From positions 42,652 through 106,651 of the forward strand of contig CAJLWO010000001.1 in assembly GCA_905210435.1 (NCBI GenBank): 64,000 bases of DNA. Direction: 5' to 3'. The notes beneath the pieces were generated by a model. It ran no database searches. It was not told where the DNA came from and was given only the letters and a program-made list of their open reading frames with translations. Made by a program: the position numbers and the translations under genes. Below, in pieces: positions 8,822 to 55,950 of this stretch (position 1 is the stretch's first letter; every line of letters begins with the position of its first letter). The stretch is from an uncultured Bacteroidales bacterium (GTDB lineage Bacteria; Bacteroidota; Bacteroidia; Bacteroidales; Muribaculaceae).

Positions 8822-8850
8822 AAAAAGCTGCCCCCACGGCAGCTTTTTTT
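8822..8850. terminator. Rho-independent terminator-like hairpin flanked by A and T runs
   Basis: aaaaagctgcccccacggcagcttttttt. Confidence 0.5.
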
Positions 8851-9063: not shown

Positions 9064-10422
9064 ATGGAAAAACAGAAACGATTCATCCTCCCCGAGTCAG
9101 AGATACCCCGCTACTGGTATAATATTCAGGCCGACATGGTCAACAAACCACTGCCGCCGCTCAACCCCGCCACTAAGGAGCCTCTCAAACCCGAGGACTT
9201 ATACCCCATATTCGCCGAAGAGCTTTGCCGCCAGGAACTCAACCAGACCGACGCCTGGATTGAGATACCCGACCAGGTGAGGGAGATGTACAAATATTAC
9301 CGCTCGACCCCGCTTGTGCGCGCCTACGGTCTTGAAGAAGCGTTGGGTACTCCGGCCCACATATATTTCAAGAACGAGAGCGTAAGCCCAATGGGCTCAC
9401 ACAAGCTAAATTCAGCCATACCGCAGGCCTACTACTGCAAGCAGGAGGGAGTCAAGAACGTCACAACCGAGACCGGCGCCGGACAATGGGGCGCGTCGCT
9501 GGCCTACGCCGCACGTCTTTTCGGACTCGAGGCCGCAGTTTACCAGGTGAAAATCAGCTACGAGCAGAAGCCCTACCGCCGCTCTATCATGCAGACATTC
9601 GGCGCGCAGGTGACACCCTCCCCCTCCATGTCGACCCGTGCCGGCAAGGATATACTTACTGCCAACCCCAACCATCAGGGTTCGCTCGGCACCGCCATCT
9701 CCGAGGCCGTGGAGCTTGCCCGCACCACCCCCGACTGTAAATACACCCTCGGCTCGGTGCTCAGCCATGTCACCCTCCACCAGACCGTCATCGGCCTCGA
9801 AGCCGAAAAGCAGATGGAGATGGCCGGCGAATATCCCGACACCATCATAGCATGCTTCGGCGGAGGCTCCAACTTCGGCGGCCTCGCGTTCCCGTTCATG
9901 CGCCACACTATCCTGGAAGGTAAAAAGATACGTTTCATCGCCGCCGAACCGGCATCATGCCCCAAACTGACGCGCGGTAAATTCCAGTACGACTTCGGCG
10001 ACGAGGCCGGCTACACCCCGCTGCTGCCCATGTACACCCTCGGCCACAATTTCGCTCCGGCCAACATTCACGCCGGCGGTCTGCGCTACCACGGCGCGGG
10101 CGTCATCGTATCGCAGCTGCTCAAGGACGGCATGATGGAAGGAGTCGACATCGAGCAGCTCGAATCGTTTGAGGCCGGCACACTCTTCGCGCGCGCCGAA
10201 GGCATCATCCCCGCCCCCGAATCGTGCCACGCCATCGCCGCCACCATCCGCGAAGCCAAGAAATGCATCGAGACAGGCGAAAAGAAAGTAATCCTCTTCA
10301 ACCTCTCTGGCCACGGCCTCATCGACATGGCATCCTACGACAAATATTTCGCCGGCGACCTCGTCAACTACAAACTCTCCGACGAAGAAATCCAGCGCAA
10401 CCTCGACGAAATCAACAAATAA
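9064..10422 (+). CDS. TrpB-like pyridoxal-phosphate-dependent enzyme (tryptophan synthase beta-subunit-like, TrpB2/COG1350)
   Basis: 452 aa; N-terminal ESEIPRYWYNIQADM and PLP-fold motifs (GSHKLN, GGGSNFGG) typical of TrpB2. Confidence 0.75.
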   Translation: MEKQKRFILPESEIPRYWYNIQADMVNKPLPPLNPATKEPLKPEDLYPIFAEELCRQELNQTDAWIEIPDQVREMYKYYRSTPLVRAYGLEEALGTPAHIYFKNESVSPMGSHKLNSAIPQAYYCKQEGVKNVTTETGAGQWGASLAYAARLFGLEAAVYQVKISYEQKPYRRSIMQTFGAQVTPSPSMSTRAGKDILTANPNHQGSLGTAISEAVELARTTPDCKYTLGSVLSHVTLHQTVIGLEAEKQMEMAGEYPDTIIACFGGGSNFGGLAFPFMRHTILEGKKIRFIAAEPASCPKLTRGKFQYDFGDEAGYTPLLPMYTLGHNFAPANIHAGGLRYHGAGVIVSQLLKDGMMEGVDIEQLESFEAGTLFARAEGIIPAPESCHAIAATIREAKKCIETGEKKVILFNLSGHGLIDMASYDKYFAGDLVNYKLSDEEIQRNLDEINK

Positions 10423-10440
10423 TCCCCTGAATCAGTATAA

Positions 10441-10490
10441 ATAAAGAGGGTGTTGCAAAACGTAATCAAACTGTTTTGCAACACCCTCTT
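10441..10490. terminator. Bidirectional rho-independent terminator (18-bp perfect stem)
   Basis: aagagggtgttgcaaaac-gtaatcaaact-gttttgcaacaccctctt followed by tttgttttattt; lies between convergent trpB-like and GH13 genes. Confidence 0.75.
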
Positions 10491-10508
10491 TGTTTTATTT
10501 TACAGTTG

Positions 10509-12833
10509 TCAGTTCATTTTGATGAATACGGGAATCCAGGCTTTTACCGAGACTGTGCCGCTTACGGTGCCGCCGTTGAGGAGGTCTTCACCGGTGCCGC
10601 CTATGCTTACCGAGGTGTCCTGCTGGGGGAAGATGCAGATTACCCTGTTGCCGGTCTCGGCGTCGGTCTTGGTTATTATCTCCACGTTGTTGCCCATCTG
10701 CTGCCGCTGTACGCTGCCGCGCCACAGTGCGGGGTTCTCGGCGCGTGCCTTGAACACTTTTGCCACGTAGTCGTGGACGCGCTGCTCGTTGGGGCTGAAG
10801 CCTGAGATGCGGCCTGAGGTGCGCGCCTTGTTGTCGGCGTTGCCGTTGCCGCTCTTGTCGCCGATTTCATCGCCGTAGTAGGTACATGTCGGTCCGGAGT
10901 ATGCGGCTACGGCGGCATGGCGTGTCATCAGTCCTTCGGGTGAGGTATTGATGTCGACGAAGTCGCCCACGCGCGATGTGTCGTGATTGCTGAGGAAGAT
11001 GGTGGGGTTGACGCCTGCGTCGCGGTAGCCGCGCGATGATGCGTCGTTTGACAGGAACCAGCCGATTGAGCCTACGCCGCGGCTGAGGTTGACGAGGTTA
11101 TCCTTGCCGTCGAAGTCCATGACGCTCTTGAGGCCGTCCTGCTGGGTGACGGTGATGCCGCCGGCACTTGTCCAGTCCTCGCCGACCATGTAGCCGAGAG
11201 TGCCCCACTGCTCGCCGCGTGCCTTGCGCTCGGCAGCTACGGCCTCTACCTCGAGGCGGAGGTCATGCCAGTAGTTGTGGCCACCCTGATATACCTGGTA
11301 GCACTGGTCGAGACGCCATCCGTCGACGCCGAAGTTGTCCATCCAGTAGCGTACCACCTCCTTGAAGTAGTTTAGCGAACCGGGGTAGGAGATATTGCCG
11401 GCGTCGGAGCCGCGCACGTTGGATGCGGTGCGGTTGTCAATATAGTTGCCCTTGGGCGATGCTCCGGTGCAGTTGCTGTGGTGGCCGAAGACGCCGTCGA
11501 GTATGATGTAGATGCCGCGTTCGTGGGCCTTGTCGACAAGTTCGCGGAAATCGGCTTCGGTGCCGAAGTGCGGGTCGATTTTGAAGTAATCGTTGGCGAA
11601 ATAGCCTGTGGCCTTGAGGCGTTCGTCGCCGTGGCCGCCGTTCGACGAGTCGAATACCGGGGTAAGCCAGATGGCGTTCATGCCGAGGTCCTTGATATAG
11701 TCGAGCGCTTCGGTCACGCCTTTGATGTTGCCGTTCTTACGGTGTCCTTCGGGGCCCCACATCTGGCTGTAGCCCGATGCTCCGCGGTCGCTGTGCTGGA
11801 ACGAGCCTACCATCACCTGATAGATGGAGAGTTCGCGCCAGTCGCCGGTAAGGCCCGACACGATGACGGTATCGTCACGGTTGAATGTGGCCGAGAATTC
11901 CGTGGTGCCGATAGCGTTGGTGGCGCTTATCGTCATTGTGGCTGATTCTCCGTCGGCGAGATAATCGCTCACGGCGATTGAGTTGCTTCCGTTGGCGAGG
12001 CTGAGCTGACGGCCGTTGAACGAACCGCTCACCGAGGTAGCATCGTTGGCGATGTCGACAGTGATTACCGAGGTTCCTTTCACTTTGCCCGATGCGGGGC
12101 TTACGGTGATTGACGGTTTCTGCGGCCCCTCGGGGTTGGATGAGTACCATTTCTTATCCTTAAGGAGATACCATCCGTGGTTGCCGTCGAAGTCGAGGGC
12201 TATGCCCGCTTCGCCGGCGGCCGGATAGCGTTCGTTGTCGCTGTTTCCGGTGTTGAATATCACCAGTGCGTTTTTGTCGGCCGTGTCGGGGAGTGTGTAG
12301 GTGAACCATCCGTTGGAATCGGCGGTCATCCGTACGCCCGGCCATGTGCCGGCATGTTCGGTAAGAGGCGATGCGGTGTATATGTAGGCATACGGCTGAT
12401 TGTTCCATTCACCTTTGAAGTGGACGGTGCGGCCTGTCTCAATGACGCGGGGGCCGACCTTGACGGTGTAGGTCTTCGTAGCGTTGCTGCTTGTCACCTT
12501 GCAGCTTACGGTGTTGCTGCCGTTGATGAGTCCGGCTACGGAGTGGTTGGTATAGGGCTGGCCGTTGACGGTGAAGTCGACGATGGCGTCGGAAGCTGCG
12601 GGAGCGGCCGAGATGGTGGCAGTCACCGGAAGGTTTTCAATAGTGACGTCGTAGGCGGTGACTGACGAGCTGAACCCGTCGACGATGTTGCTGCCGTCGA
12701 CTTTGATTTCAAGCCGGTTGAGTGACGCGTCGCCGCTGTTGACAGCCGCTGTGGCCTTGACGGATGCCCAACCAAGAAGCAGGGCCATGCTTAACGAGCG
12801 CATTATGCGCGTTATATTGCTTATATTTTTCAT
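10509..12833 (-). CDS. Secreted alpha-amylase family glycoside hydrolase (GH13) with N-terminal Ig/cadherin-like beta-sandwich domains
   Basis: Signal peptide; GH13 motifs (GMNAIWLTPVFDS, YIILDGVFGHH, DGWRLDQC, FLSNHDTSR). Confidence 0.75.
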   Translation of the reverse strand: MKNISNITRIMRSLSMALLLGWASVKATAAVNSGDASLNRLEIKVDGSNIVDGFSSSVTAYDVTIENLPVTATISAAPAASDAIVDFTVNGQPYTNHSVAGLINGSNTVSCKVTSSNATKTYTVKVGPRVIETGRTVHFKGEWNNQPYAYIYTASPLTEHAGTWPGVRMTADSNGWFTYTLPDTADKNALVIFNTGNSDNERYPAAGEAGIALDFDGNHGWYLLKDKKWYSSNPEGPQKPSITVSPASGKVKGTSVITVDIANDATSVSGSFNGRQLSLANGSNSIAVSDYLADGESATMTISATNAIGTTEFSATFNRDDTVIVSGLTGDWRELSIYQVMVGSFQHSDRGASGYSQMWGPEGHRKNGNIKGVTEALDYIKDLGMNAIWLTPVFDSSNGGHGDERLKATGYFANDYFKIDPHFGTEADFRELVDKAHERGIYIILDGVFGHHSNCTGASPKGNYIDNRTASNVRGSDAGNISYPGSLNYFKEVVRYWMDNFGVDGWRLDQCYQVYQGGHNYWHDLRLEVEAVAAERKARGEQWGTLGYMVGEDWTSAGGITVTQQDGLKSVMDFDGKDNLVNLSRGVGSIGWFLSNDASSRGYRDAGVNPTIFLSNHDTSRVGDFVDINTSPEGLMTRHAAVAAYSGPTCTYYGDEIGDKSGNGNADNKARTSGRISGFSPNEQRVHDYVAKVFKARAENPALWRGSVQRQQMGNNVEIITKTDAETGNRVICIFPQQDTSVSIGGTGEDLLNGGTVSGTVSVKAWIPVFIKMN

Positions 12834-12842
12834 GAGTCGGGA

Positions 12843-14468
12843 TTACTTCTTGATTATTTTGAATACTGACCTGTTGGCCGCGGAATCAGTCACGTTGAGT
12901 ATGTACATGCCGGCCGGCATATGCGACAGGTCGAGGGTGGCGCTGTCGGCTCCGGCACAGTCAGTGCCTGCCATGAGCGCTCCGTTGAGGTTGTAGAGCG
13001 CTACTGATGCGAGCGGGGTGGTCGATGCGACAGTCAGCTCCCCTTCGGTGGGATTGGGGCCGGCTGTCACTATGGCTGCCGCGGTGTCCGACATGATGCC
13101 GTCGGCGCCTCCCACATTGCTGTAAAACACTTCGGGGAGCGTGCATGCCTGCGACGAGAGGCCGCGGAGTGCGGGATAGCTCTTGCCGTTGTCGGTGCGC
13201 CATTCCCACACGTTGTCGAAGTCCCAGCCCGTCATTGCCTTGAAGCGGCTGAAGTCGACGATTGCGTCGGCGTTGCGTGTCGATGCATGGTCGCCGTATG
13301 CTGTCCATGTCAGGTGTCCGGCGGGGATGTTGTCCCAGCTGTAGTTGTCTGTCGAGCTGTTGCGCGGGTTGTTGTTGCCGCCGAAGCGTGCCGCATAGTC
13401 GCTCGCCGATGTGATGCCGGCGTTAAGGGCTACGGAGCTTTCCACGCGTCCGTAGTTGGCGCCTGCCACTCCTCCGGCGTAGTCAAAGCCGGTGACGTCG
13501 CCCGAAGCGTAGGTGTTGGCCACCGTGCCCGAGTTTTTGCCTACAAGGCCGCCGGTGGCATAGTCGTCGCGGTTGTCGACTGTGGCTGTGGAGTAGCAGT
13601 CGGTGACTGTGGCGCCGGCATTGTCGCCGATAAGGCCGCCCACGCAAACCGATGTGCCTGTAACTGAGCCGGTCGAGAAGCAGCGTTCCACTGAGCCGCT
13701 GCGTGCATAGCCGGCAAGAGCGCCGACATAGGTGGCACCGCTCACCGTGGCGCTGACAACGCCGAGGTCGCTTATCGCGGCGCCGTCAATTGCCCCGAAG
13801 AGTCCCGTCGCTGAGCCTACGGCGGTGTTTGTGGCCTTGAAGCCTTTGATTGAGTGGCCGTTGCCGTTGAAATGTCCTTTGAACGGATTGTCAATCGAGC
13901 CGATCATACCCTTCACGGTCGAGGCGTCGATGTCGGCGTCAAGCCTGAACCACGCCGATGCCTTCCAGTCGTCGGGAGTGGAGACAAGTGCCGACAGGTC
14001 GTCGGCCGAAGCTATGATATAGGGGTCGGCCTGCGAGCCGGTGCCTCCTGAATAGGATGAACCGCCCCCCTGCTCGACATTGACAAAGCAGTCGGCGGTC
14101 TGTGCTCCCGATGTGGTTTTTGCAATGAATCCGAGTTTTTTGAGACCCTGCAGCTCGGAGTCGCTGAGTCCGTAGAACTGCTTGATGTCGGCGATTTTAA
14201 GGGTGTACACGCCGTTGCTTCCCGACATGCGGAATTTGTCGGTGTGCACATCGCCCCATTGCCATGGCGATTTCGAACTGCCGTTGATGTCGGCGCACCA
14301 GGTGTAGCAGAATACTTCCGAGCCGAGATTGTCGGTCGTGATGGTGACCTCCAGCGGGCTGCCGGATAGCGCCGGCGACGGATTGGTCGTGACTGTGGCA
14401 TTGCTCCCCGCGCTCCACGATGGAAGCGATGTCAGCAACCCAAGCAGACATAGATAAAATTTTTTCAT
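12843..14468 (-). CDS. GLUG-motif repeat protein with N-terminal carbohydrate-binding-like domain and T9SS C-terminal sorting domain
   Basis: Repeats GGLIGDNAGATVTDCYSTATV / TGGLVGKNSGTVANTYASGDV / AGGVAGANYGRV (GLUG-like); C-terminal PAGMYILNVTDSAANRSVFKIIKK; start set at internal MKKFYLCLLGLL signal peptide (ORF extends to 14582). Confidence 0.6.
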   Translation of the reverse strand: MKKFYLCLLGLLTSLPSWSAGSNATVTTNPSPALSGSPLEVTITTDNLGSEVFCYTWCADINGSSKSPWQWGDVHTDKFRMSGSNGVYTLKIADIKQFYGLSDSELQGLKKLGFIAKTTSGAQTADCFVNVEQGGGSSYSGGTGSQADPYIIASADDLSALVSTPDDWKASAWFRLDADIDASTVKGMIGSIDNPFKGHFNGNGHSIKGFKATNTAVGSATGLFGAIDGAAISDLGVVSATVSGATYVGALAGYARSGSVERCFSTGSVTGTSVCVGGLIGDNAGATVTDCYSTATVDNRDDYATGGLVGKNSGTVANTYASGDVTGFDYAGGVAGANYGRVESSVALNAGITSASDYAARFGGNNNPRNSSTDNYSWDNIPAGHLTWTAYGDHASTRNADAIVDFSRFKAMTGWDFDNVWEWRTDNGKSYPALRGLSSQACTLPEVFYSNVGGADGIMSDTAAAIVTAGPNPTEGELTVASTTPLASVALYNLNGALMAGTDCAGADSATLDLSHMPAGMYILNVTDSAANRSVFKIIKK

Positions 14469-14834
14469 TAAAAAACAATTAAAATTAAAAAATGTAAGTA
14501 GATATATGTATAACTTTCCTCGGCATGGCTCCGCTGAGTCATGTCGGGATACAATACGTAATGGCGGAAAACTATAAATCAACCGCTCGCAACGATATTG
14601 TGAATGCGTTAAGGCGAAATTACAGAAATATTAGTAATGACGTATGCAAATATAAACATTTTAAACTGAAAGCCAAAGAAAAGTTACATTTATCTCGTCA
14701 ACACATCCAAAATCTGTCCTGCCGCAAAGCTGTATCCTCCCCGGCCATATAAAATGTACCGCATAAAATACACCGGGAGGGTGCGACGCATTGAATCGCG
14801 TCACAACAAATCCGTTTGTGTAATTTGAGTTTTG

Positions 14835-14920
14835 CGATACCCCGCCGGGCAGCTGATAATCAGCCCTCACTATCGGGTGCGACGGGTAGCAGCCCTACAT
14901 CAGCGACGGCAGTGCTTGTT
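14835..14920. repeat. Degenerate copy of family-1 REP/MITE-like element
   Basis: cagctgataatcagccctcactatcggg...gcagccctacatca matches core and right end of copy at 32247-32365, but second palindrome decayed. Confidence 0.5.
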
Positions 14921-15050
14921 TTGCAACACCCGGCCATATCTTTGCGGTACGTGTTGATTATTTTTGAACAAAAATGTTTTTTGAGGGCTATGGTATATGA
15001 TTTTTCATTATCTTTGTGAAGTCGGTGGGTTAGTTATTTGTGTGAGCCTG

Positions 15051-16529
15051 ATGAAGAAATTATTTATAGCAATCGGTCTTATGGTGCTGTGTCTGGTGTC
15101 GGTATCCGACGCTTGGGCAAAGCCGCGCTCATCAAAAAGCGTCAAGCATCAGCAACGCATTACCGAACATAAAATCAAGCAGACCGACACTCAGATCAAG
15201 GAGAATGCCCGTCAGCTCAAATCAAAGCTCAACGACCTCAACCGCCTGCAGGCCGAGTCGCAGACCATCGGCAGCGCCATAACGGCCATTCAGGCGTCAA
15301 TCGACTCGCTCGATGTGGCGGCAAAGGCGGCGCGCGACTCTGCGGCCAGACTCGACGGCAAGCTCACCGAACTGAAAGATGTCTATGCCGACATATTGCG
15401 CAACTCGCGCCGCTCGCGCATGTCGATGAGCAATCTCGCATTCATTTTCTCTTCCGAATCGTTCACGCAGGCATTCCGGCGTGCCAACGCGCTCAAGCAG
15501 TTCTCGCGCTGGCGCCAGCGCAAGGTGGCCAATATCAATGCTGTGAAAGCGCAGCTCGACGAGCGCAGGCGCTATATCGACACGCTCATGACGCAGAACA
15601 GGGAACTTGCCATGCGCATGTCGATGCGTCATGCCGAGCTAAGCCGGCGTGCCGCCGAGACCGACCGCATCGTGGCCTCGCTCAAAGGGAAGGAGAGCGA
15701 CTTGCGCAAAGTGCTCCGCGACCAGCAGCGGCAGGCAGCAGCGCTCGACCGCGAGCTTGACCGTATCATAAAGGAGGAACAGCGCAAAGCTCTCATTGAG
15801 GAGCAGAAACGCAAACAACGAGAGGAGGAGCAGCGTCGTGCCGAGGAAAAACGACGCGCCGAGGAGCAGCGCAAGGCCGAAGAGCGCCGCAAAGCCGAGG
15901 AACGCAAAGCCGCCGAACAGAAGGCATCGGCAACACCCGCCCCTTCCGCTGACAAAGCCGCCAAGCCCGGCACAACTCCGACAACTCCACCAGGTCAGAC
16001 CGGTCGGACAGGTCAGACACGTCCAACCAATCCGACTACTACCGCCCCGACAACCTCAGCGCCGAAAACAGGCGGGAAGAAGCAGCCGTCTCCGGCACTC
16101 GCATCCGATTTTGCCGCCAACAAAGGGCGCCTGAGCTATCCGGTCAATCCCCACAACATAGTGAAACGCTTCGGCCGACAGCAGCATCCGCTCCACAAGC
16201 ATGTCGTCACCGAAAACGCGGGTATAGACATGGAGACATCGAGCGGTGCCACGGTCAAGAGCGTGTTTGACGGCGAGGTGTCGGCGATATTCTGCCCCGA
16301 CGGCTACAACAACGTGGTGCTGGTGCGCCACGGCCATTACCTTACCGTCTACGCCAATCTCGGCACACTCGCCGTGCGCACTGGCGATAAGGTGAAGACC
16401 GGCCAGAAATTAGGCACCGTCTACGTCGACGCCGCCGACAACAACCGTTCCATACTCCATTTCGAGATACGCAACGCTGCCAATGCGAAATCGGTAACCA
16501 AAGAAAATCCCGAAGTATGGCTGCGGTGA
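15051..16529 (+). CDS. Murein hydrolase activator EnvC-like / M23 family peptidase with long coiled-coil region
   Basis: Signal peptide, extended coiled-coil with K/E/R-rich low-complexity tract, C-terminal M23 LytM domain (GIDMETSSGATVKSVFDGEV...HGHYLTVYANL). Confidence 0.75.
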   Translation: MKKLFIAIGLMVLCLVSVSDAWAKPRSSKSVKHQQRITEHKIKQTDTQIKENARQLKSKLNDLNRLQAESQTIGSAITAIQASIDSLDVAAKAARDSAARLDGKLTELKDVYADILRNSRRSRMSMSNLAFIFSSESFTQAFRRANALKQFSRWRQRKVANINAVKAQLDERRRYIDTLMTQNRELAMRMSMRHAELSRRAAETDRIVASLKGKESDLRKVLRDQQRQAAALDRELDRIIKEEQRKALIEEQKRKQREEEQRRAEEKRRAEEQRKAEERRKAEERKAAEQKASATPAPSADKAAKPGTTPTTPPGQTGRTGQTRPTNPTTTAPTTSAPKTGGKKQPSPALASDFAANKGRLSYPVNPHNIVKRFGRQQHPLHKHVVTENAGIDMETSSGATVKSVFDGEVSAIFCPDGYNNVVLVRHGHYLTVYANLGTLAVRTGDKVKTGQKLGTVYVDAADNNRSILHFEIRNAANAKSVTKENPEVWLR

Positions 16530-17977
16530 AAGGCGTAGGCAAAAACACGTCGGGCAAGGTAGTCAGGACGATGTGGCTCTTCTCTTGGGTGCAGCTCGTG
16601 ACTATCGGCTGCGGCATAGTCCGCACGAAGCTCGTGGCGCTGTGGCTCGGCTCGATGGGCGTGGGCCTTTTCGGCCTGTTCAACACCGCCATGGATGCCA
16701 TCACCACCCTCACGCAGCTCGGTATCCGCCAAAGCCCGGTGCGCAATATCGCATCGGCCTGTGATGGCGGCAAGTTGCGGCGTGTGGTTGCCGCCGTGCG
16801 TGGATGGGCATGGATACTCGGCATAGCCGGCGCATTCCTCACACTTGTTTTCTCACCGCTGCTGAGCCGGCTTACATTCGGCAACGAACAATACACCCTC
16901 GGTTTCATAATACTCTCCGTGGCCGTCATGCTCTCGGCTGTCACCAACGGCGAACTTGCCGTCATGCAGGGTATAGACCGTCTCAACCGCCTGGCACGCG
17001 CCACGGTATGGGGCACTCTCGGCGGACTCGCCGTGTCGGTGCCGCTTTATTGGTTTATGGGGGAGGAGAGCGTGGTGTGGTCCATTCTCGCATATTTCGC
17101 CTGCCAGGCTGCGGCTGTTTTCGTTTTGCGCGAGAAACGCGTCGGAACATGCGCCGAAGGCTCCCGCCCTGTGCGGCTGACGCGGCGTGAACTTATGTCC
17201 GAGGGGAAGGACTTCGTCACGCTCGGCATCTATATGACGCTCTCGGTATTCATAGCAATGGCCGTCAATTATATTTTCATGGCTTACCTTAACCATGAGG
17301 CCGGAATCGACGAGGTGGGACAGTATCAGGCCGGTTACACCATAGTCAACAAATATCTCGGACTGCTCTTCACCGCGATAGGATTTGAATTCTTTCCGCG
17401 TATAAGCAAGGTGCAGGCTTCGGTGAGGAAGGTGTCGACCTTTGTCAGCCACGAAGTCATGGTGGCCGTGCTTGTCGTGCTCCCCGGAGCCACTATGATG
17501 ATGACACTCGACGACGTAATCATAAGGTTGCTTTACAGCGACGAATTCATGCCCGCCGCCGGATATGTCAATGCGGCGTTGGCGGGAACGGTGTTCCGCG
17601 CGTTGTCATGGTGCATGGCCTACACGCTTCTTGCGCGTGGCGACGGCCGCGTGTACCTGCTGACCGAAAGCGCCAGCGGCGCGGCGTTCCTTGTGCTGAG
17701 TTTCGCCGGATACCGTCTCGGAGGGCTCGACGGCCTCGGGGTTGCCTATACTATATGGTACGGCCTGTATGTCGTAATCACCGGCGCGGTGTATTTCGGG
17801 CGCTACAGGATGCGGCTCAACCGCCGCGTGGCGCTCCTTTCGGCCGCAGCGGTGCTGATAACCGCCGGATGCGCATGGGCGCGCATTGAAGGGGTACGCA
17901 TCGTTCCGGCGATGGTCGCGCTCGTATCGTCGGTGGCAGCATTCCGTGTACTGAAATCAATGATAACGGGACGATGA
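16517..17977 (+). CDS. Oligosaccharide/polysaccharide flippase family protein (Wzx/MOP superfamily)
   Basis: About 12 predicted TM helices, 486 aa; 13-nt overlap with envC-like gene. Confidence 0.6.
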   Translation: MAAVKGVGKNTSGKVVRTMWLFSWVQLVTIGCGIVRTKLVALWLGSMGVGLFGLFNTAMDAITTLTQLGIRQSPVRNIASACDGGKLRRVVAAVRGWAWILGIAGAFLTLVFSPLLSRLTFGNEQYTLGFIILSVAVMLSAVTNGELAVMQGIDRLNRLARATVWGTLGGLAVSVPLYWFMGEESVVWSILAYFACQAAAVFVLREKRVGTCAEGSRPVRLTRRELMSEGKDFVTLGIYMTLSVFIAMAVNYIFMAYLNHEAGIDEVGQYQAGYTIVNKYLGLLFTAIGFEFFPRISKVQASVRKVSTFVSHEVMVAVLVVLPGATMMMTLDDVIIRLLYSDEFMPAAGYVNAALAGTVFRALSWCMAYTLLARGDGRVYLLTESASGAAFLVLSFAGYRLGGLDGLGVAYTIWYGLYVVITGAVYFGRYRMRLNRRVALLSAAAVLITAGCAWARIEGVRIVPAMVALVSSVAAFRVLKSMITGR

Positions 17978-30691: not shown

Positions 30692-31037
30692 CCGGAGAGA
30701 GAGGAGAATGAGTAGCATTAGTCTTATAGACTTTGTTGCTCATTCTTTTTTTGTATACACCCCGCAGCATATAGTGGGTCAGATACAATACGGATCAATG
30801 CAAAAACTCAGTTGTTAAAATTCCGACAGCGGAGAGCCGGAGATTATGCTCCTGAAAATGATTTGGGAGGTTGGGCATTTCGGGTGATGATTTTTATTCA
30901 TATTGCTTTTTAACATTTCAACCGGGTTTTGCTACTGACCCAAACTTTCGTTCGTATATTTTGAACTTTGCAGCCCATCTAAAATAAAAAAGTCCGGAAG
31001 GAAAACCTCTCGGACTTTTTTGCTTTTGAGAATTTTG

Positions 31038-46873: not shown

Positions 46874-48241
46874 ATGGAAAGAGATAAACTTGACTTTGGA
46901 AACGAGAGAATCGGGCGCCTGTTCCGCGCCATGTTCTTCCCTACGCTCATAGGCATGCTGTTCAACTCGGTGCTCAACCTGTGCGACGGCATGTTCGTAG
47001 GACATGGGGTCGGCAGCAACGGCCTGGCGGCAATAAATATCGTGGCGCCGCTGTTTCTCATCTGCACCGGCATAGGACTGATGTTCGGCATCGGCGCATC
47101 CGTCGTAGGCAGCATCCGCCTTGCCGAGGGCAACGTCAAGGCAGCCCGGATAATAATGACACAGGCCTACATAGCCGGAGCCGTGATTTTCGGCGTGGTA
47201 ATTGCCGTATCGCTTCTTTTCACACGTCACGTGCTTTATGCTCTCGGCTGCAGCCCCGCGCTCGAAAGCCTCGCCTCCGACTACCTGCTGTGGCTTCTGC
47301 CGGGCCTGATGTTTTTCTACGTGCAGTGCGTCGGCATGATGCTCATACGTCTCGACGGCTCCCCGAAATTCGCAATGAGCATACAGATTGCCGCCGCCGT
47401 GCTCAATATATTTCTCGACTGGCTGATGGTGTTCCCGCTCGGCATGGGCATAAAAGGAGCGTCGATAGCGACCTCGATTTCATGCATCGTCGGCGGACTG
47501 ATGGTACTCGGATATTTCCTTTTCTTCTCCGACAAACTGAAATTCTACCGTCTGAAACTGTCGGTCAAATCGTTACGCCTGTCGCTCCGCAACACCGGAT
47601 ACATGGTCAAGATCGGACTCGCCACATTCATCGCCGAACTCTCGATAGGCATAATGATGGTGACAGGCAACTACGTGTTTCTCGACACACTCGGCGAAGC
47701 GGGAGTGGCCGCATTCAGCATCGGCTGCTACCTGTTCCCGCTCATATTCTCGATAAGCAACGCCGTGGCTCAGGCATCGCAGCCTATCATAAGCTTCAAC
47801 TACGGAGCCGGGCAGTTTGAGCGCGTCACCCGTACGTTGCGGATAGCCGCAGTGACAGCCTGCATCTGCGGAGCCATAATCTCAACCGGCATGTGGTCGG
47901 GAGCATCGCTGCTGACTCAGGTATTCCTCAGCCCGTCCGAACCGGCCTACGCCATAGCCGTGGAAGGGCTCCCCGTGCTCGGCATCTGCGCCCTCTTTTT
48001 CGCGCTCAACATCACATTCATCGGCTACTACCAGAGCCGCGAACAGTCAGCCCGCTCCATCATCTACATGCTGTTGCGCGGAGTGATATTCGTAGTCCCC
48101 GGCTTCTTCCTCCTCCCCCGCATATTCGGCGAAACCGGCCTATGGCTCGCCATCCCCGTATCCGAATTCCTCACCCTCCTCGTAATAACCGCCGCCTGCC
48201 TCACCGTCCGCACCCGCCATCAAATTCCCGCCGAGCACTAA
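46874..48241 (+). CDS. MATE family efflux transporter
   Basis: 455 aa, 12 TM, N-terminal RLFRAMFFPTLIGMLFNSVLNLCDGMFVGHGVG typical of MATE/NorM. Confidence 0.75.
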   Translation: MERDKLDFGNERIGRLFRAMFFPTLIGMLFNSVLNLCDGMFVGHGVGSNGLAAINIVAPLFLICTGIGLMFGIGASVVGSIRLAEGNVKAARIIMTQAYIAGAVIFGVVIAVSLLFTRHVLYALGCSPALESLASDYLLWLLPGLMFFYVQCVGMMLIRLDGSPKFAMSIQIAAAVLNIFLDWLMVFPLGMGIKGASIATSISCIVGGLMVLGYFLFFSDKLKFYRLKLSVKSLRLSLRNTGYMVKIGLATFIAELSIGIMMVTGNYVFLDTLGEAGVAAFSIGCYLFPLIFSISNAVAQASQPIISFNYGAGQFERVTRTLRIAAVTACICGAIISTGMWSGASLLTQVFLSPSEPAYAIAVEGLPVLGICALFFALNITFIGYYQSREQSARSIIYMLLRGVIFVVPGFFLLPRIFGETGLWLAIPVSEFLTLLVITAACLTVRTRHQIPAEH

Positions 48242-48424
48242 TGATGACATATTAACACAAAGTATTTTAACACAAAGTATTCGAGCACATTACTTGTTAA
48301 CTGGAAAAGGCGCGTGCGTTTGACCCCTTCGGGCACGCGGGATTTGACCCCTCGGGCAAAATAAGAATGACCCCTTAAAAGTCCTGGCGGCGGGGGTCAA
48401 TGTTATTTTACCTCATTTGGTTTG

Positions 48425-49204
48425 TCAGGCTTTTCTAGCCTTCAGTTTGCGCATGCTTTCTCCGGACAGCTCGATTGTGTGCGCCGAGTGTACTATACGG
48501 TCGAGGATGGCATCGGCCACAGTCGGGTCACCGACCATGTCGTACCAGCTTGAGGAAGGGTACTGGGAGGTGATGATGATCGATTTGCGCTCGTTGCGGT
48601 CTTCGATTATGTCGAGCAGGATCGGACGCTCCTTCGCGTCAAGGGGCACCAGAAAAAGATCGTCGAGGATGAGCAGCTGACATCGTTCGATTTTCTTGAG
48701 CTCGGGCTCAAGATTGTTCTTGACTTTTGCGACCTTTAGCTGTCCGAGCAGTTTGGAGGCGTTGGCATACAGGGTGCGTATGCCACGTTTGCAAGCCTCA
48801 TGTCCCAGTGCGCAGGCCAGGAAGCTTTTACCTGTGCCTGATGATCCGGTGATGAAGAGATTCTGACCGTTTCGGACGAAGTCGAGTGTCGCCAGGCGCT
48901 CCATCTGGTTGCGGTCGAGCCCCCGGTTTGTGGCGTAGTCGATTTCCTCGAGATATGCCTTGTAGCGGAACGCCGCGTTTTTTGTCAGGCGCATTACGGC
49001 GGCTTGTGCGCGCCAGTCCCATTCGCGGTGCAGGAGCATCGACAAGAAGGAATCCGGAGTCATTGACTGTGCGGTTGTTCCGGCAAGGCTTTCGCGGAAG
49101 GCCTCTGCCATTCCGTGCATCTTCATGCGGTTCATCAGGTCCAGCGATGTTGTGTTCTGGTCCGGTTGCTGGGTGGCCGGTGCGGTTTTATCTGTTGTTT
49201 CCAT
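48425..49204 (-). CDS. istB: IS21-family helper ATPase IstB
   Basis: Walker A GSSGTGKSFLACALGHEA, Walker B LLILDDLF; start assumed at internal METTDK overlapping istA stop. Confidence 0.85.
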   Translation of the reverse strand: METTDKTAPATQQPDQNTTSLDLMNRMKMHGMAEAFRESLAGTTAQSMTPDSFLSMLLHREWDWRAQAAVMRLTKNAAFRYKAYLEEIDYATNRGLDRNQMERLATLDFVRNGQNLFITGSSGTGKSFLACALGHEACKRGIRTLYANASKLLGQLKVAKVKNNLEPELKKIERCQLLILDDLFLVPLDAKERPILLDIIEDRNERKSIIITSQYPSSSWYDMVGDPTVADAILDRIVHSAHTIELSGESMRKLKARKA

Positions 49205-50786
49205 TACTGTTGGTGTTGTTGGGTTCGTTTTTGCGGCTGTAGTATTCGCGGCCGCGGATGTTCTTGTGTACCGGAGCAGGGACTGCAGCCGTCGGGCCAC
49301 AGGCAGTTCCGTCCTCATCCGGCAGGAAGTCAGCGTCTTCGCCCTGTTCGAGGATTTTCCTGACGGTCTGATAGCCATATGCCGCCTTCATCGACGCGCA
49401 GGCGCACGCCGCCACGAGTCGGTCTGTGCCATACTTCTTTTCAAGCGACAGTATGCCGCGGCAGCTGCTGAAGGATTTCGGCGGATACTGCATCATGGCA
49501 TCCACTTCGTGGAGGTAGTCAAGAACGATGTTGTCCATTTCAGCGGCTCGCTTGAAGAGTTCCTCCAGATCCTTGTCATACGGGCCGTAATGGCCGGGCA
49601 GGTTGTGTTCCTTCTTCCATGAGTATGTGTAGGGTATGTCGCAGCGGTCGTGTGTGGCCACGAGATTGAGGCCGCAGTAGATCTCAACCGTGTCCGCGTC
49701 ATAAAGGATGACCACACGTTTGCCGACATGCTCGCGCGGCACGCTGTAATGGTGCTTGAACAGGGAGACATAACAGTTCTTGCCCACTGTCATCAGCTTT
49801 CGTTCCTTGATGACAAACGGTTTCTCGGGAAGGGGACGCAGGAAGTCCTTTTCGCCCTGCAGGAACATGTCTTTACGCGACATATTCCTTCCTGCCATCA
49901 GCCTTTCGTTGAAATCGTGCAGCGATATGTGAATCGCCGTGTTCAGTTCGTCCAGCGACGGGAAGACAATCCCCTCTATGTCAAGATACACTGACTGGTA
50001 CAGCAGCTTGACGGCGTTCTCGACAAGGGCCTTGTCTTTGGGATGGCGGACCCGCGCGGGATATACGGCGCATCCGTAATGTTCGGCGAAGGCCGCGAAC
50101 TCCTCGTTGATCACAGGCTCGTTCCGGTCGCTGGTCTTTACCGCCGCCTTCAGGTTGTCGGGCACGATGGCGGCCGTCACGCCTCCGAAGTACTCAAATG
50201 CATTCTGACAGGCCTTGATCAGGTCTTCCTTCCGTTGCGACCATACCGCCTCGCAGTACGTGTAGTGGCTGAACGGAAGGATGGCGACGAACACTTCCGC
50301 TTTCTTGACCTCTCCCGTCATTCCGTCCACCACTTCCAGCTTGTCTCCTGCGAAGTCGACATACATCTGGTCGGCGGCATAGTGCTCGACGTGCCCCACA
50401 ACCGTGGTGTGGAACCTGTACTGCCGGACGGAGCGTTTGAACACGGACTCCTGAAAGCCGTCGGGATGCTCGCTTCTGTACTCGTTGAAAAGCTTGCGGA
50501 CTGTCATGCCCTTGCGGGAAAGCCGGGCGACATAGCCCGGTATCAGTGCGTCAAGTTCCAGTTGACGCTGCGACGGCTCGCGGTGACGGAACTCCGTGCA
50601 TCCGAACATCTCACGGAGATGCTCTTCCGAGAGTTCAAGCAGCTGTTCGGTAGTCTTGCCGCTTGAAATGAACAGCCGGACATACTTGCGTACGGTGTTG
50701 CGGGAAAGGTGAAACGTGTTGGCCGTCTCTTTTATTCCCATTCCGACTGCGTAACATCGAAGGATGTTTTTTAATTTTGCAATCAT
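49188..50786 (-). CDS. istA: IS21-family transposase IstA
   Basis: N-terminal HTH (GMGIKETANTFHLSRNTVRKYVR), DDE integrase core; likely start MIAKLKN at 50786 (ORF opens 50828). Confidence 0.85.
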   Translation of the reverse strand: MIAKLKNILRCYAVGMGIKETANTFHLSRNTVRKYVRLFISSGKTTEQLLELSEEHLREMFGCTEFRHREPSQRQLELDALIPGYVARLSRKGMTVRKLFNEYRSEHPDGFQESVFKRSVRQYRFHTTVVGHVEHYAADQMYVDFAGDKLEVVDGMTGEVKKAEVFVAILPFSHYTYCEAVWSQRKEDLIKACQNAFEYFGGVTAAIVPDNLKAAVKTSDRNEPVINEEFAAFAEHYGCAVYPARVRHPKDKALVENAVKLLYQSVYLDIEGIVFPSLDELNTAIHISLHDFNERLMAGRNMSRKDMFLQGEKDFLRPLPEKPFVIKERKLMTVGKNCYVSLFKHHYSVPREHVGKRVVILYDADTVEIYCGLNLVATHDRCDIPYTYSWKKEHNLPGHYGPYDKDLEELFKRAAEMDNIVLDYLHEVDAMMQYPPKSFSSCRGILSLEKKYGTDRLVAACACASMKAAYGYQTVRKILEQGEDADFLPDEDGTACGPTAAVPAPVHKNIRGREYYSRKNEPNNTNSNGNNR

Positions 50787-51032
50787 ATTCTGTAGTTTTT
50801 GAGATTGATCCCCGCCGTGCCAGGACAAGGAGTCTCAAAGCTACAAAAAATTCCCCTGCCGATGCTTCGACAGGGGTCATTTTTATGGCGCCCGCAAGGG
50901 TCATTCTTATTTCGCCCAAAGGGGTCAAATCCCGCGTGCCCGAAGGGGTCAAACGCACGCGCCTTTTCCACTATCTTTACTTCTGTAAGTAAGATATACC
51001 AGACAATTTGTTTTTCTGTCATTTTCTTGTTC

Positions 51033-51545
51033 TTATCTAATTGTTAGGCTCATTGTTGTTATACATTGTTTAATTATAGATAAATCGTGAATATCCTTCT
51101 CTCTTAAATCGTAGCCCGAATGGAATACTTGTTGCCCTTTTGCAGAAATGCAAGGGATGCTTCTGCCTTCAAAGACTGCTGTTCCAAAATAGTCCGGTTG
51201 AAATTCATACCAGCCTCCATCCAAGTCGGCTTGTTTGGAAGTGCCGTCCGCATTCAAGACAAAAGGATGGATATCAATATAGCCTAATTCTTTGCTATAC
51301 AGTTCCATACGGGTGGGCAACCAATTTGTTTCAATTTGATATCCTCTCTCCTGCAAAAGATCAAGGAGTTGGTCTGTATAATTGGCATCAAAATCAATGT
51401 CAATATCTCTATGCAAGCGGGTTTGCTGTCCGTACAAGACATCCACTCCCCAGCCTCCATCCAACCAAAACTGCATGTCCAGGCTTTCCAACAAGTCCAA
51501 AACTTGAAATAACTCTGTAATCGTAGTGTGTTCTTTCTTTGTCAT
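51033..51545 (-). CDS. lnu: Lincosamide nucleotidyltransferase, Lnu(A)/Lnu(AN2) family
   Basis: 170 aa; ELFQVLDLLESLDMQFWLDGGWGVDVLYGQQTRLHRDIDIDFDA...IPCISAKGQQVFHSGYDL closely matches LinA/LinAN2 sequences as I recall them. Confidence 0.8.
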   Translation of the reverse strand: MTKKEHTTITELFQVLDLLESLDMQFWLDGGWGVDVLYGQQTRLHRDIDIDFDANYTDQLLDLLQERGYQIETNWLPTRMELYSKELGYIDIHPFVLNADGTSKQADLDGGWYEFQPDYFGTAVFEGRSIPCISAKGQQVFHSGYDLREKDIHDLSIIKQCITTMSLTIR

Positions 51546-51569
51546 ATAATAATTCTTTAATAAATAATA

Positions 51570-52775
51570 CTATGCGTAATTATCCAACTGCTTGATTGAA
51601 GAAATAAAATTTGCACCCACTCCAATCAGAAAGATAACCCATCCGCTGATCATAAAGACGGATGTGATACCCCATGCTTCCACCCAATATCCTGAAGCTA
51701 CGATACCCAGCATTGATGGAAAGGTACTCAAACTAAAGATGAGAGAAAAAGTCCGTCCAAGCATGTCCGAAGCCAAGTTCTGCTGAATAATAGCGATGAA
51801 AAGCGCATGGTAAATGGAATAGGCTATGCCTCCTGTAAATGTTAGGCAAACAAAACCTATAAATGCGCTTGATGGTAAATAACTGGCGCTAATCAGATAC
51901 AATCCCAATATCACATAAGCCGTATGCATCACTAATGTTTGCTTGCTTTTCAAAGCCTTACAGGCAAGTACTAAACCGCCCAACAATGCCCCTGAGCCCC
52001 AACCCATTTCCACAACTCCCATTTGCAAAATGTTTCCGTTGAAATGCAGAAGCGTCATAAAAGGAAATAACGTAAAAACAGGCATAAGGACAAAAGTCAC
52101 CAGCGTAAAGCATACGAATAAAGGCAAAATGCCCATTGTACGCCGCAAGGTATGCCAACATTCCGTCAGTTCTTTTTTGAAATCTGGAAGAACTTTCGTT
52201 TTTTGAAGAGAAGGAATCTGGACACAAAGTAAGGTCAGACAAGCAGCAACAGCTCCGATCACATCTATGAGCAGAATATACTGTATGGGAAGCCAAACAA
52301 CGAGGCTTGCCCCTACAACGGGAGCTATCACCTCACTGAAGGATTGAATGGAATGGTACAAACCTGATACCCTGACAAGATGGTGCTTGGGAACCAGTAG
52401 AGGGATGCTTGCCTGTAAAGCAGGTGCATGAAACGTACTGCCTATTGAACGACAAGCAGTCAATAGATAAAAAAAAGAAAGGTCTTTATAACCCTTGGTT
52501 ATCACAATAAAAAGACATAGGGTACAGAACGCGATGAACAAGTCCGAATAAAACATCGTTTTCTTTCGATTCCATCTGTCAACATAGACCCCGGCAAACA
52601 AGCCTAATACAAATTGTGGTAAAAATCCAGCTAAAATAGCCAGAGATAAAGCTGTCGGGGATTTAAATTCGTTGCTAATCCAAAAAATAATGGAGAAGCC
52701 AACAATCGTACTTGTTAAAATAGATATGAGTTGGCCTATTCCTATCACGGCCAAAGTTGATTTCCAATGATTCAT
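51570..52775 (-). CDS. mef: Macrolide efflux MFS transporter, Mef(En2)-like
   Basis: 401 aa, 12 TM MFS; adjacent to lnu gene as in NBU2; AT-rich codon usage. Confidence 0.65.
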   Translation of the reverse strand: MNHWKSTLAVIGIGQLISILTSTIVGFSIIFWISNEFKSPTALSLAILAGFLPQFVLGLFAGVYVDRWNRKKTMFYSDLFIAFCTLCLFIVITKGYKDLSFFYLLTACRSIGSTFHAPALQASIPLLVPKHHLVRVSGLYHSIQSFSEVIAPVVGASLVVWLPIQYILLIDVIGAVAACLTLLCVQIPSLQKTKVLPDFKKELTECWHTLRRTMGILPLFVCFTLVTFVLMPVFTLFPFMTLLHFNGNILQMGVVEMGWGSGALLGGLVLACKALKSKQTLVMHTAYVILGLYLISASYLPSSAFIGFVCLTFTGGIAYSIYHALFIAIIQQNLASDMLGRTFSLIFSLSTFPSMLGIVASGYWVEAWGITSVFMISGWVIFLIGVGANFISSIKQLDNYA

Positions 52776-53102
52776 TGTGCTAATATTTCATGCGTTTATA
52801 GATAAGTACTTTCGTACATTAAGCAAAACGAAATTCTATCCACACAAAAAACTTGTATTATAATCCACTCCTGACGTTGGAATACAATAACAAATACTTT
52901 CAGGACGATGTAAAGTCCTGAAAAATCAAACTGAATGGATAGATAAATATTAGTCTTTTCTCATCGGATTCTTTTAATATCGCTACTCTTTTATTATGTA
53001 GTGGTTGTATTATCTTAAATAAAACAAAAACACCCGACTTTACATTCTTGGGTGCAAAACTGGGTGTTTGTTTTGCAATTTGCTGATTTTCAGCGTTTGT
53101 TG

Positions 53103-53187
53103 CGGAGAGAGAGGGATTCGAACCCCCGGAGGTGTGACCCTCAACGGTTTTCAAGACCGCCGCAATCGACCACTCTGCCATCTCTCC
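53103..53187 (-). tRNA. tRNA-Ser (anticodon TGA), type II with long variable arm
   Basis: Reverse complement GGAGAGATGGCAGAGTGGTCGATTGCGGCGGTCTTGAAAACCGTTGAGGGTCACACCTCCGGGGGTTCGAATCCCTCTCTCTCCG; anticodon loop CTTGAAA. Confidence 0.85.
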
Positions 53188-53424
53188 ATTGACTATTTCC
53201 GGTGTCGCTACGAGCTATTATACATCTAATCCCCAAGCGACTGCAATGTTTCTCATCTTCGACCACTGTCGACCATTCTCCATTGCGAGTGCAAAGTTAT
53301 GTCTTTTTTTTTAATTGTCCAAATTTTCAATTGCATTTTTTTGACGATTTTTCGTATATTTGCACATTATTACATCATTACAATTACATCATTACACCCA
53401 AACATCCAAAACACCAAATCTAAC

Positions 53425-55950
53425 ATGAAGAAATTCGTATGCATTCTGGCTTTATCAACACTCTTGTCGACAGGAGCCATATTCAACGCCGACGCGGCCT
53501 CCATCAACACCGGATCAACCACTACACGCCCCGACGGCAGCACGAATTTCAACCACGGCTGGACTTTCAATCTCGGCGACATCGACGGCGCAGAAATGCC
53601 CGGCTTCGACGACTCCGCATGGCGCACTCTCTCGCTCCCCCACGACTGGGCCATCGAAGGCGACTTCAGCGAAGACAACCCCTCGGGCGCAGGCGGCGGC
53701 GCACTCCCCGGAGGCATTGGCTGGTACCGCAAGACATTCACCCTGCCCGACAACGCCGGGGGCAAACGCATATTCATCGACTTCGACGGCGCATACATGA
53801 ACTCGTCGGTCTACATCAACGGCCGATACGCCGGCGGACGCCCTTACGGCTACGCTTCGTTCAGCATCGACGCCACCGACCTGCTCAACGACGGCAACAA
53901 CACCATCGCCGTGAAAGTCGACAACGCCGAGCAGCCCAACTCCCGCTGGTACTCCGGCTGCGGCATCTACCGCAACGTGTGGCTGCGGCCCGAAAACGCC
54001 CTGTTCATACCAAAGAACGGCACATACATCACCACCGACGGCAACGACATCAATATCGCAACAACCGTCGACAACACCACTTCCGCGCCGCAGGCCGTAA
54101 AGGTCGTAACCACCGTGCGCGACAGCAAAGGAAAAAAACTCACATCCGCACAGACAAACGTCATCGCCCATAACGACAGCAACACCATAGCCCATCAGAC
54201 TCTCACGGTAAAATCCCCCGAACTCTGGAGCCCGAAATCACCGACGCTCTACACCGTCACAACCGAACTCTTCGACAGCAAAGGCAGGAAACTCGACACC
54301 GATGTCACCCGCACCGGTTTCCGCACATTCCGTTTTGACGCCGACAAAGGTTTCTTCCTCAACGGCAATCACATGAAGCTCAACGGCGTATGCCTCCACC
54401 ACGACGCCGGCGCACTCGGAGCCGTAGTCAACCGCGCGGCTATCCGCCGTCAGCTCACCATGCTCAAAGATATGGGATGCAACGCCATACGCTGCACCCA
54501 CAATCCTCCCGCCCCCGAGCTTCTCGACATGTGCGACGAGATGGGATTCCTTGTGATGGACGAAGCCTTCGACATGTGGCGCAAACGGAAAACCACCTAC
54601 GACTACGCCCGTTATTTCAACGAGTGGCACGAACGTGACCTCGACGACTTCATACGCCGCGACCGCAATCACCCTTCCATAATAGTATGGAGCATCGGCA
54701 ACGAAGTGCTTGAACAATGGAACGATGCAGGCGCCGACACCCTTTCACTTGCCGAAGCCAACCTGATACTCAACTTCGGGCACTCCCCCGAGCAGCTCGC
54801 GGCCGACGACGGCACAATGTCGGTCAACTCCCTGCTCACCAAAAAACTTGCCGACCGGGTGCGCGCCCTCGACCCGCAGCGACCCGTGACCGCCGGATGC
54901 AACGAGGCCGACCCCGGCAACCACCTTTTCCGTTCGGGCGCACTCGACATCATCGGCTTCAACTACCACGACAGCTGGTTTGCAGGCGTCCCGCAGAACT
55001 TCCCCGGCAAACCGTTTGTCATCACCGAAAGCGTATCGGGACTGATGACCCGCGGTTTCTACATGATGCCGTCCGACCGGTTCTATATCTGGCCCGACAG
55101 CTGGGATCGTCCGTTCTACCACGACTCAATGTCATGCTCCTCCTACGACAACTGCTACGTGCCCTGGGGCAACTATCACGAAGGGACGATGAAACATGTG
55201 CGCGACAACGACTTCATTTCAGGCCAGTTCGTATGGACGGGATTCGACTATCTCGGCGAACCCACCCCTTACCAGTGGCCGGCGCGCAGCAGCTATTTCG
55301 GCATAATCGACCTCGCCGGATTCCCCAAGGACATCTATTACCTCTACCAAAGCGAGTGGCAGAACGACACCGACGTGCTCCACATCTTCCCCCACTGGAA
55401 CTGGACCGAGGGTGAGGAGGTCGACATCTGGGCATACTACAACAATGCCGATGAGGTTGAACTGTTTCTCAACGGCGAGTCGCTCGGCACCGCGTCAAAG
55501 ACTCCCGACCGCCTCCACGCCATGTGGCGTATACCGTTTGCTCCCGGCACACTTACAGCCGTAAGCCGGCGCGACGGAGCCGAAGTGGCCCGCGACACTG
55601 TCACGACGGCGGGGACTCCGCACAGCCTGCGTCTGACACCCGACCGCACCGTCATCGGCGCCGACGGCACAGACCTATGCTATCTCACGGTCGAGGTTGT
55701 CGATGCCGACGGCAATCTGTGTCCCCTCGCCGACAACGAAATCACATTCAGTGTCGACGGCACGGCATTCAACGCCGGAGTCGACAACGGCTGCCAGTTC
55801 TCCCACGAGCGGTTCAAGTCAGACAAGCGCAAGGCTTTCTACGGCAAAGCGTTGCTCATCGCGCAGAACGACGGCCGCGCCGGCCGGTTCACCGTCACCG
55901 CCACTTCGCCGGGACTCAACCCCGCGTCGCTGTCCCTCGCATCCGAATAA
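53425..55950 (+). CDS. Glycoside hydrolase family 2 (beta-galactosidase-like), secreted
   Basis: Signal peptide MKKFVCILALSTLLS; GH2 sugar-binding WRTLSLPHDWAIEG, WYSGCGIYRNVWL, catalytic NHPSIIVWSIGNE; ORF opens 53299 but start set at MKKF (53425). Confidence 0.8.
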   Translation: MKKFVCILALSTLLSTGAIFNADAASINTGSTTTRPDGSTNFNHGWTFNLGDIDGAEMPGFDDSAWRTLSLPHDWAIEGDFSEDNPSGAGGGALPGGIGWYRKTFTLPDNAGGKRIFIDFDGAYMNSSVYINGRYAGGRPYGYASFSIDATDLLNDGNNTIAVKVDNAEQPNSRWYSGCGIYRNVWLRPENALFIPKNGTYITTDGNDINIATTVDNTTSAPQAVKVVTTVRDSKGKKLTSAQTNVIAHNDSNTIAHQTLTVKSPELWSPKSPTLYTVTTELFDSKGRKLDTDVTRTGFRTFRFDADKGFFLNGNHMKLNGVCLHHDAGALGAVVNRAAIRRQLTMLKDMGCNAIRCTHNPPAPELLDMCDEMGFLVMDEAFDMWRKRKTTYDYARYFNEWHERDLDDFIRRDRNHPSIIVWSIGNEVLEQWNDAGADTLSLAEANLILNFGHSPEQLAADDGTMSVNSLLTKKLADRVRALDPQRPVTAGCNEADPGNHLFRSGALDIIGFNYHDSWFAGVPQNFPGKPFVITESVSGLMTRGFYMMPSDRFYIWPDSWDRPFYHDSMSCSSYDNCYVPWGNYHEGTMKHVRDNDFISGQFVWTGFDYLGEPTPYQWPARSSYFGIIDLAGFPKDIYYLYQSEWQNDTDVLHIFPHWNWTEGEEVDIWAYYNNADEVELFLNGESLGTASKTPDRLHAMWRIPFAPGTLTAVSRRDGAEVARDTVTTAGTPHSLRLTPDRTVIGADGTDLCYLTVEVVDADGNLCPLADNEITFSVDGTAFNAGVDNGCQFSHERFKSDKRKAFYGKALLIAQNDGRAGRFTVTATSPGLNPASLSLASE

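Follow-up and report, generated by a model that had tools for sequence, protein, structure and literature searches.

NBU2 is a mobilizable transposon, or integrative mobilizable element, of Bacteroides, for which PMC5704250 refers to Wang, Shoemaker, Wang and Salyers (2000); its properties are also treated in PMC9259675. According to the account in PMC8849064, which cites Wang et al. (2000), the original study of NBU2 found linAN2 to be functional, while mefEN2 was apparently not expressed. In this work we analyse a remnant of NBU2 in a 64-kb window of a contig from an uncultured Muribaculaceae bacterium (CAJLWO010000001.1; all feature positions are window coordinates). The remnant carries lnu(AN2) and mef(En2) and lies between a complete insertion sequence (IS) of the IS21 family and a tRNA-Ser gene of the host. 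We consider it likely that NBU2 integrated at this tRNA-Ser and afterwards lost its backbone by an IS21-associated deletion. An initial annotation of the window had already read the locus as a truncated NBU2 cassette with IS21 at the truncation boundary, and the comparisons presented here support that reading.

As a reference for the element we gathered 12 NBU2 loci, the intact copies among them being L001, L092, L094, L095, L097 and L100. In the B. finegoldii element the genes follow each other as site-specific integrase, PDDEXK nuclease, a hypothetical protein, DUF3853 protein, AAA ATPase, toprim primase, a 467-aa gene at the mob position, SnoaL-like ester cyclase, a small open reading frame (ORF), lnu(AN2), mef(En2) and tRNA-Ser, and in intact NBU2 core-like direct repeats stand 11.2 kb apart. 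The locus under study resembles these copies in the order and orientation of lnu(AN2) and mef(En2), in 99.5-99.95% DNA identity over the terminal 2.1 kb, and in a junction at the 3' end of tRNA-Ser that falls inside a 13-bp core. It differs from them in having no intN2, attL, mob gene, origin of transfer (oriT) or primase gene, and in its host, which belongs to Muribaculaceae and not to Bacteroides or Phocaeicola. Moreover, the core of this host is one base off that of the Bacteroides copies examined (CCCTCTCTCTCCG instead of CCCTGTCTCTCCG).

Results

The NBU2 remnant, as delimited by DNA identity to NBU2 copies, spans 50971..53101 on the minus strand. Out of an element of ~11.2 kb, it comprises the 2131 bp nearest to the tRNA, or ~19% of NBU2. 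A single mismatch in 2131 bp (99.95% identity) separates it from the NBU2 of L094, L095 and L097, and it is 99.8% identical to positions 10066-12195 of the Bacteroides finegoldii copy L001. When window positions 50971-53188 were compared by megablast with annotated records, the matches were 99.5% identical in Bacteroides finegoldii and 99.1% in Phocaeicola massiliensis, and in these records AMRFinder labels both lnu(AN2) and mef(En2). Its identity as an NBU2 remnant is unambiguous. The AT-rich block of about 2 kb pointed out in the initial annotation is readily recognized in the base composition: GC content is 38.8% at 50971-53101, against 56.9% in the MatE-family gene on the left, 55.4% in the IS and 59.4% in the GH2 gene on the right. 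The block thus lies 17-20 points under its host flanks, and no other 1-kb bins of the 64-kb window are as low in GC as the two at 51-53 kb.

Both resistance genes are intact. The lincosamide nucleotidyltransferase gene lnu(AN2) (51033..51545, minus strand, 170 aa) scores 403 bits against NCBIfam NF000153 (cut-off 340) over model positions 1-170 of 170, and mef(En2) (51570..52775, minus strand, 401 aa), which encodes a macrolide efflux protein of the major facilitator superfamily, scores 913 bits against NF000154 (cut-off 800) over model positions 1-401 of 401. The assignment rests on the allele-specific "exception" cut-offs of NCBIfam together with the full model length, and it makes precise what had been described as LinA/Lnu(AN2)-like and Mef-type genes. 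Across the public collection, 30,547 blocks contain the exact Lnu(AN2) protein, and the canonical NBU2 element is present in all ten long contexts shown. Both genes point away from the tRNA and toward the IS. From tRNA-Ser to mef(En2), the end region of NBU2 (52776..53101, minus strand) is nearly identical to that of other NBU2 copies as far as the 3' end of the tRNA: a single mismatch separates it from L095, and its alignment with L001 shows three mismatches and a gap of 1 bp. This region presumably carries the promoter of the cassette. A scan also marked a terminator-like hairpin, by consensus match only, at 52897-52924 between the tRNA and mef(En2).

At the other end, homology to NBU2 starts at 50971, which is the first base past the IS terminus. 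The IS interrupts the NBU2 spacer downstream of lnu(AN2) (50971..51032, minus strand) at a point where the intact element has a small hypothetical ORF; the breakpoint is position 10066 of L001, within an annotated hypothetical coding sequence at 9974-10117. Immediately left of this breakpoint all 12 of the 12 NBU2 copies read ...gggtgtcactgt, which is absent from the window. AT-rich scraps had been noted on both sides of the IS. The right one is this NBU2 spacer; the left one (48242..48301, no strand, 28% GC) is not NBU2, as it gave no match to the element. It aligns instead downstream of the MatE-family efflux gene (46874..48241, plus strand; Pfam MatE) in L104, one of three sister strains with a 96% identical MatE protein (L104, L105 and L115) found by a protein-guided scan of metagenome contigs. 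The alignment extends up to TTAAC at the IS boundary; the window differs from L104 by three substitutions and by a tandem duplication of 15 bp (48249-48278, units ATATTAACACAAAGT / ATTTTAACACAAAGT; single copy in L104), and beyond TTAAC L104 continues into unrelated host DNA. When metagenome contigs were scanned for the exact pattern of the left scrap, no match was obtained. Judged by the alignment to L104, the left scrap is host DNA, and the IS thus lies between host DNA and the interior of NBU2.

The IS (48302..50970, minus strand) is a complete IS21-family element of 2669 bp with 5'-TG...CA-3' ends, as had been proposed for this boundary. Its terminal inverted repeats (48302-48352 and 50920-50970) are 51 nt long and 100% complementary, and the ends hold internal TTTGACCCCT sub-repeats at a spacing of 24 bp, in a multi-repeat architecture. 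Both genes are full. The AAA+ helper ATPase gene istB (48425..49204, minus strand, 259 aa) matches NF038214 with 257 bits (cut-off 200) and PF01695 and is also called as a gene in L003; the DDE transposase gene istA (49188..50741, minus strand, 517 aa) matches NF033546 with 231 bits (cut-off 160) and contains rve and Mu-transpos_C_2 domains. The two overlap by 17 nt on the same strand. In this gene pair, in its ends and long multi-repeat inverted repeats, and in its size of ~2.7 kb, the element conforms to the IS21 family, and its GC content is host-like. IS21-family target-site duplications are short (4-8 bp). Unlike the family, this copy shows no target-site duplication, its flanks reading gttaac on the left and ctatct on the right, which is expected if a deletion or recombination came after insertion.

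Searched by blastn against the 64-kb window, the IS matched itself and no second copy. Homologues of IstA fall into clusters of 97%, 96% and 89% identity with 297, 1158 and 1628 members, respectively. In the two closest clusters many members stand on contigs of ~2.6 kb, as a repeat present in many copies would. The nearest relative with a name (P0019, "IS21 family transposase [Muribaculaceae bacterium]") is 80% identical. In a Muribaculaceae metagenome-assembled genome (MAG; L186, GCA_029060285.1, positions 2322-4985), an IS21 whose IstA is ~80% identical to that of the window lies within a prophage-like region, adjoining a truncated P22-type portal gene, and has no recognizable target-site duplication.

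The opposite end of the remnant is the junction expected of NBU2. ARAGORN places an intact host tRNA-Ser(UGA) gene (anticodon tga), the integration target of NBU2, at 53102..53187 on the minus strand, and NBU2 sequence extends up to 53101, so that the block ends at the 3' end of the tRNA, as the initial annotation had it. NBU2 sequence stops at the core CGGAGAGAGAGGG (53103-53115), and the junction reads ...TTTCAGCGTTTGTT and then GCGGAGAGAGAGGG, the latter being the tRNA 3' end. Read on the tRNA strand, this attR core (53103..53115, minus strand) lies at the 3' end of the acceptor stem. The tRNA-Ser of the window is identical to that of L115 and nearly identical to that of the more distant L029, whereas it differs at several positions from the Bacteroides tRNA-Ser beside NBU2. 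One of these is a core base, G in the host type and C in Bacteroides; the empty sites of L115 and L029 have the same core as the window. As both the tRNA body and the core are of the Muribaculaceae type, NBU2 would have integrated in this lineage, which speaks against both an assembly chimera and the transfer of a Bacteroides tRNA along with the element. On its sequence, the right junction is as expected from integration by IntN2 into the lineage's own attB.

What remains of NBU2 at this locus is confined to the terminal segment. In tblastn searches with the integrase and seven further backbone proteins of L001, and in a blastn search with the 9-kb backbone, no match was found in the 64-kb window, and the 467-aa mob-position gene of the intact copies has no similarity there, in agreement with the absence of integrase and mobilization genes reported in the initial annotation. 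A search for the 13-bp core elsewhere, which had been recommended in order to locate the former outer end, returned no second exact copy in the window and none with adjoining NBU2 sequence. One 13-mer with a single mismatch to the core (CGGAGAGAGAGGA, 30693-30705) was considered as a former attL; it is a GA-rich tail that begins at the last base of a tRNA-Asp and has a hairpin after it, and, with no NBU2 sequence adjoining, it was judged a chance match. Integrase, mob gene and attL are all absent, and this is not a functional NBU2. Devoid of integrase, attL, relaxase and oriT, the remnant is unable to excise or to be mobilized as NBU2, and its resistance genes are consequently fixed in the chromosome. 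A lone IS cannot move the cassette as a composite.

Related genomes show the site unoccupied. In L115 a host terminator hairpin directly abuts the tRNA-Ser, and NBU2 sequence is lacking. L029 has MatE, a spacer of ~390 bp, tRNA-Ser and GH2, and here too a host terminator abuts the tRNA. The AT-rich genes are absent from L104, L105, L115, L029 and all other fetched MatE-linked Muribaculaceae and Bacteroidales loci. Across the 80 Muribaculaceae and related loci included in the synteny scan, the DNA downstream of MatE is mostly unconserved; L029 and L115 alone were informative. Among the three sister strains this DNA is entirely different. Between MatE and the tRNA, L115 (8363-14269) carries hipB/hipA (hipBA), a hexapeptide transferase and a GDE_C glycosidase; downstream of MatE there is a SocA/Panacea-domain antitoxin gene in L104 (8394-10735) and a myo-inositol-1-phosphate synthase in L105 (8350-11760). 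This pattern suggests a strain-variable hotspot beside the tRNA-Ser.

The chromosomal flanks themselves are of the expected host. MatE relatives at 67-85% identity come nearly all from Muribaculaceae or uncultured Bacteroidales MAGs. The right flank is a GH2 glycoside hydrolase gene (53425..55950, plus strand, 841 aa; gene call and Pfam GH2 domains). In the window this gene lies between tRNA-Ser and a DUF3108 gene. It is missing in L115 (14356-14615 compared), where the tRNA stands almost directly before the DUF3108 gene, so both sides of the tRNA-Ser are variable among close strains.

Discussion

According to the history that we propose, NBU2 would have entered a Muribaculaceae lineage, where the tyrosine integrase IntN2 inserted it into the 3' end of the host tRNA-Ser(UGA). 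A copy of IS21 would then have inserted either inside NBU2, at a point 62 bp past lnu(AN2), or in the spacer between MatE and the tRNA. A deletion at the IS would have followed, whether IS-adjacent or through homologous recombination of two IS copies in direct repeat. It would have taken away ~9 kb of NBU2, comprising attL, intN2, the PDDEXK, DUF3853, AAA and primase genes, the SnoaL gene, and mob together with the oriT region, plus some of the host DNA that lay downstream of MatE. Left over, and fixed in the chromosome, would be the 2.1 kb next to the tRNA, in which mef(En2) and lnu(AN2) are both intact.

We infer the order of events, and infer likewise that the IS caused the deletion; the latter is drawn from the exact coincidence of both IS termini with the two breakpoints and from an independent parallel case. 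In a Bacteroides contig (L096, ENA ERZ27273564 contig_174, positions 8431-16746), NBU2 is retained from position 5566 to 11217 and adjoins an IS21 with 73.6% identity to that of the window; the integrase side of NBU2 is gone, and past the IS there are host sigma, FecR and TonB-receptor genes. As in our window, the IS abuts a retained part of NBU2 from the tRNA side, with lnu(AN2) and mef(En2). The breakpoints differ, being at NBU2 position 5566 in L096 and at ~9074 in the window, so do the hosts, and L096 retains the mob and primase genes.

The IS might instead be a bystander, NBU2 having been cut by an unrelated deletion (illegitimate recombination or aberrant excision) and IS21 having landed later at or near the joint. 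Since relatives of the window IS likewise lack recognizable target-site duplications, the missing duplication is no proof of an IS-mediated event, and to this extent a bystander would fit. However, such an IS would have had to land exactly on the junction of host and NBU2 DNA, as the homology to each stops at an IS terminus, and in L096, an independent genome, this geometry is repeated with another IS21 relative and another breakpoint in NBU2; we therefore regard this course of events as unlikely. Alternatively, IS21 itself could have brought in the lnu/mef segment, whether within a composite transposon or by one-ended transposition, with no part played by NBU2 integration; an intact and presumably active IS21 abutting the cassette would be in keeping with this. 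Against it, the other end is a precise attR junction in the 13-bp core of a host-type tRNA-Ser, which is the signature of IntN2, no second inverted repeat is found past the tRNA, and the unit of IS plus lnu/mef is found at this locus only. With a single IS copy in the 64-kb window, the IS-delimited composite that the initial annotation had offered as an option loses its basis, and we judge an IS-borne origin to be very improbable.

The source is probably a metagenome assembly, in which the conserved tRNA-Ser could have served to join a Bacteroides NBU2 fragment to a Muribaculaceae contig. In other samples, short-read contigs do break near the IS (L086 ends at 48292) and inside the tRNA (L090 starts at 53151). 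But the entire tRNA is of the host type, including its NBU2-adjacent bases, and the ~11 nt shared at the junction are too short for a k-mer join. Furthermore, at least two assemblies made independently, ENA ERZ28575934 (scaffold_73) and NCBI GCA_900523045.1, have an identical arrangement, and we do not take it for an assembly artefact; the chance that the locus is a chimera seems to us slim indeed. That the AT-rich genes are ancestral to the Muribaculaceae chromosome is refuted by their 99.95% DNA identity to Bacteroides NBU2, by a GC content far under that of the flanks, and by the absence of the block from the related loci. The initial annotation had named a lack of close similarity to LinAN2/MefEn2, or an ancestral chromosomal locus, as grounds for giving up an NBU2 origin, and had called for comparisons with NBU2 and with the tRNA-Ser locus of relatives. 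The proteins are Lnu(AN2) and Mef(En2), the block is nearly identical to NBU2 copies, and the locus in the relatives is free of it.

Several observations weigh against NBU2 integration followed by an IS21-associated deletion, or against parts of this history. No conspecific intermediate, with the full NBU2 or the IS alone at the site, was found; exact-protein look-ups of MatE, AraC, DUF3108 and IstA returned only the same arrangement or short contigs broken at repeats. The exact IstA protein is found at this locus only, which leaves a second recombining copy undocumented. None of four related IS copies (L096, L184, L185 and L186), several of them nested or truncated, has a clean target-site duplication, so that the argument from the missing duplication is weak by itself. 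The content between MatE and the tRNA varies among the sister strains, and the extent of host DNA lost is consequently not measurable. With regard to expression, no Bacteroidetes -7 motif (TAnnTTTG) is present upstream of mef(En2), and a sigma-70 promoter scan of the same region did no better than on shuffled sequence. We assume that mef-lnu would be expressed and would confer lincosamide resistance.

More tentatively, the locus and L096 could be instances of a broader pattern, in which the host range of NBU2 reaches Muribaculaceae by way of a tRNA-Ser(UGA) attB with a one-base variant, and IS21 recurrently truncates NBU2 from the integrase side to give a stable chromosomal lnu(AN2)/mef(En2) locus. 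We think of this generalization as possible, though doubtful.

All components of the locus are known (NBU2, Lnu(AN2), Mef(En2) and IS21), and nothing in it is mechanistically new. A full-text literature search gave no paper on NBU2 with an IS21-mediated truncation and none on NBU2 in Muribaculaceae; the specific instance is thus probably undescribed, a further example of a familiar process. Its interest lies in the fact that a very widespread lincosamide/macrolide cassette has reached Muribaculaceae, an abundant family of which little has been cultured and which is difficult to manipulate genetically. The pNBU2 integration vectors are the standard tool of Bacteroides genetics, and the precise junction described here, which indicates that IntN2 can use the Muribaculaceae tRNA-Ser site, is relevant to them. 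The locus would also be a clean case of an IS depriving an element of its mobility functions with the resistance genes left intact, which bears on how the mobility of a resistance gene is scored in resistome surveys, as a match to lnu(AN2) does not imply a mobilizable NBU2.

Insertion sequences are also present in other NBU2 copies. In L093 (NCBI GCA_009741595.1) and L099 (ENA ERZ27273294) an IS4-type element (DDE_Tnp_1) is inserted between mef(En2) and lnu(AN2), and L093 has an additional IS4-type insertion inside the NBU2 backbone. Among the sampled contexts, with IS4-type elements in L093 and L099 and IS21 in L096, NBU2 appears to be a frequent IS target.

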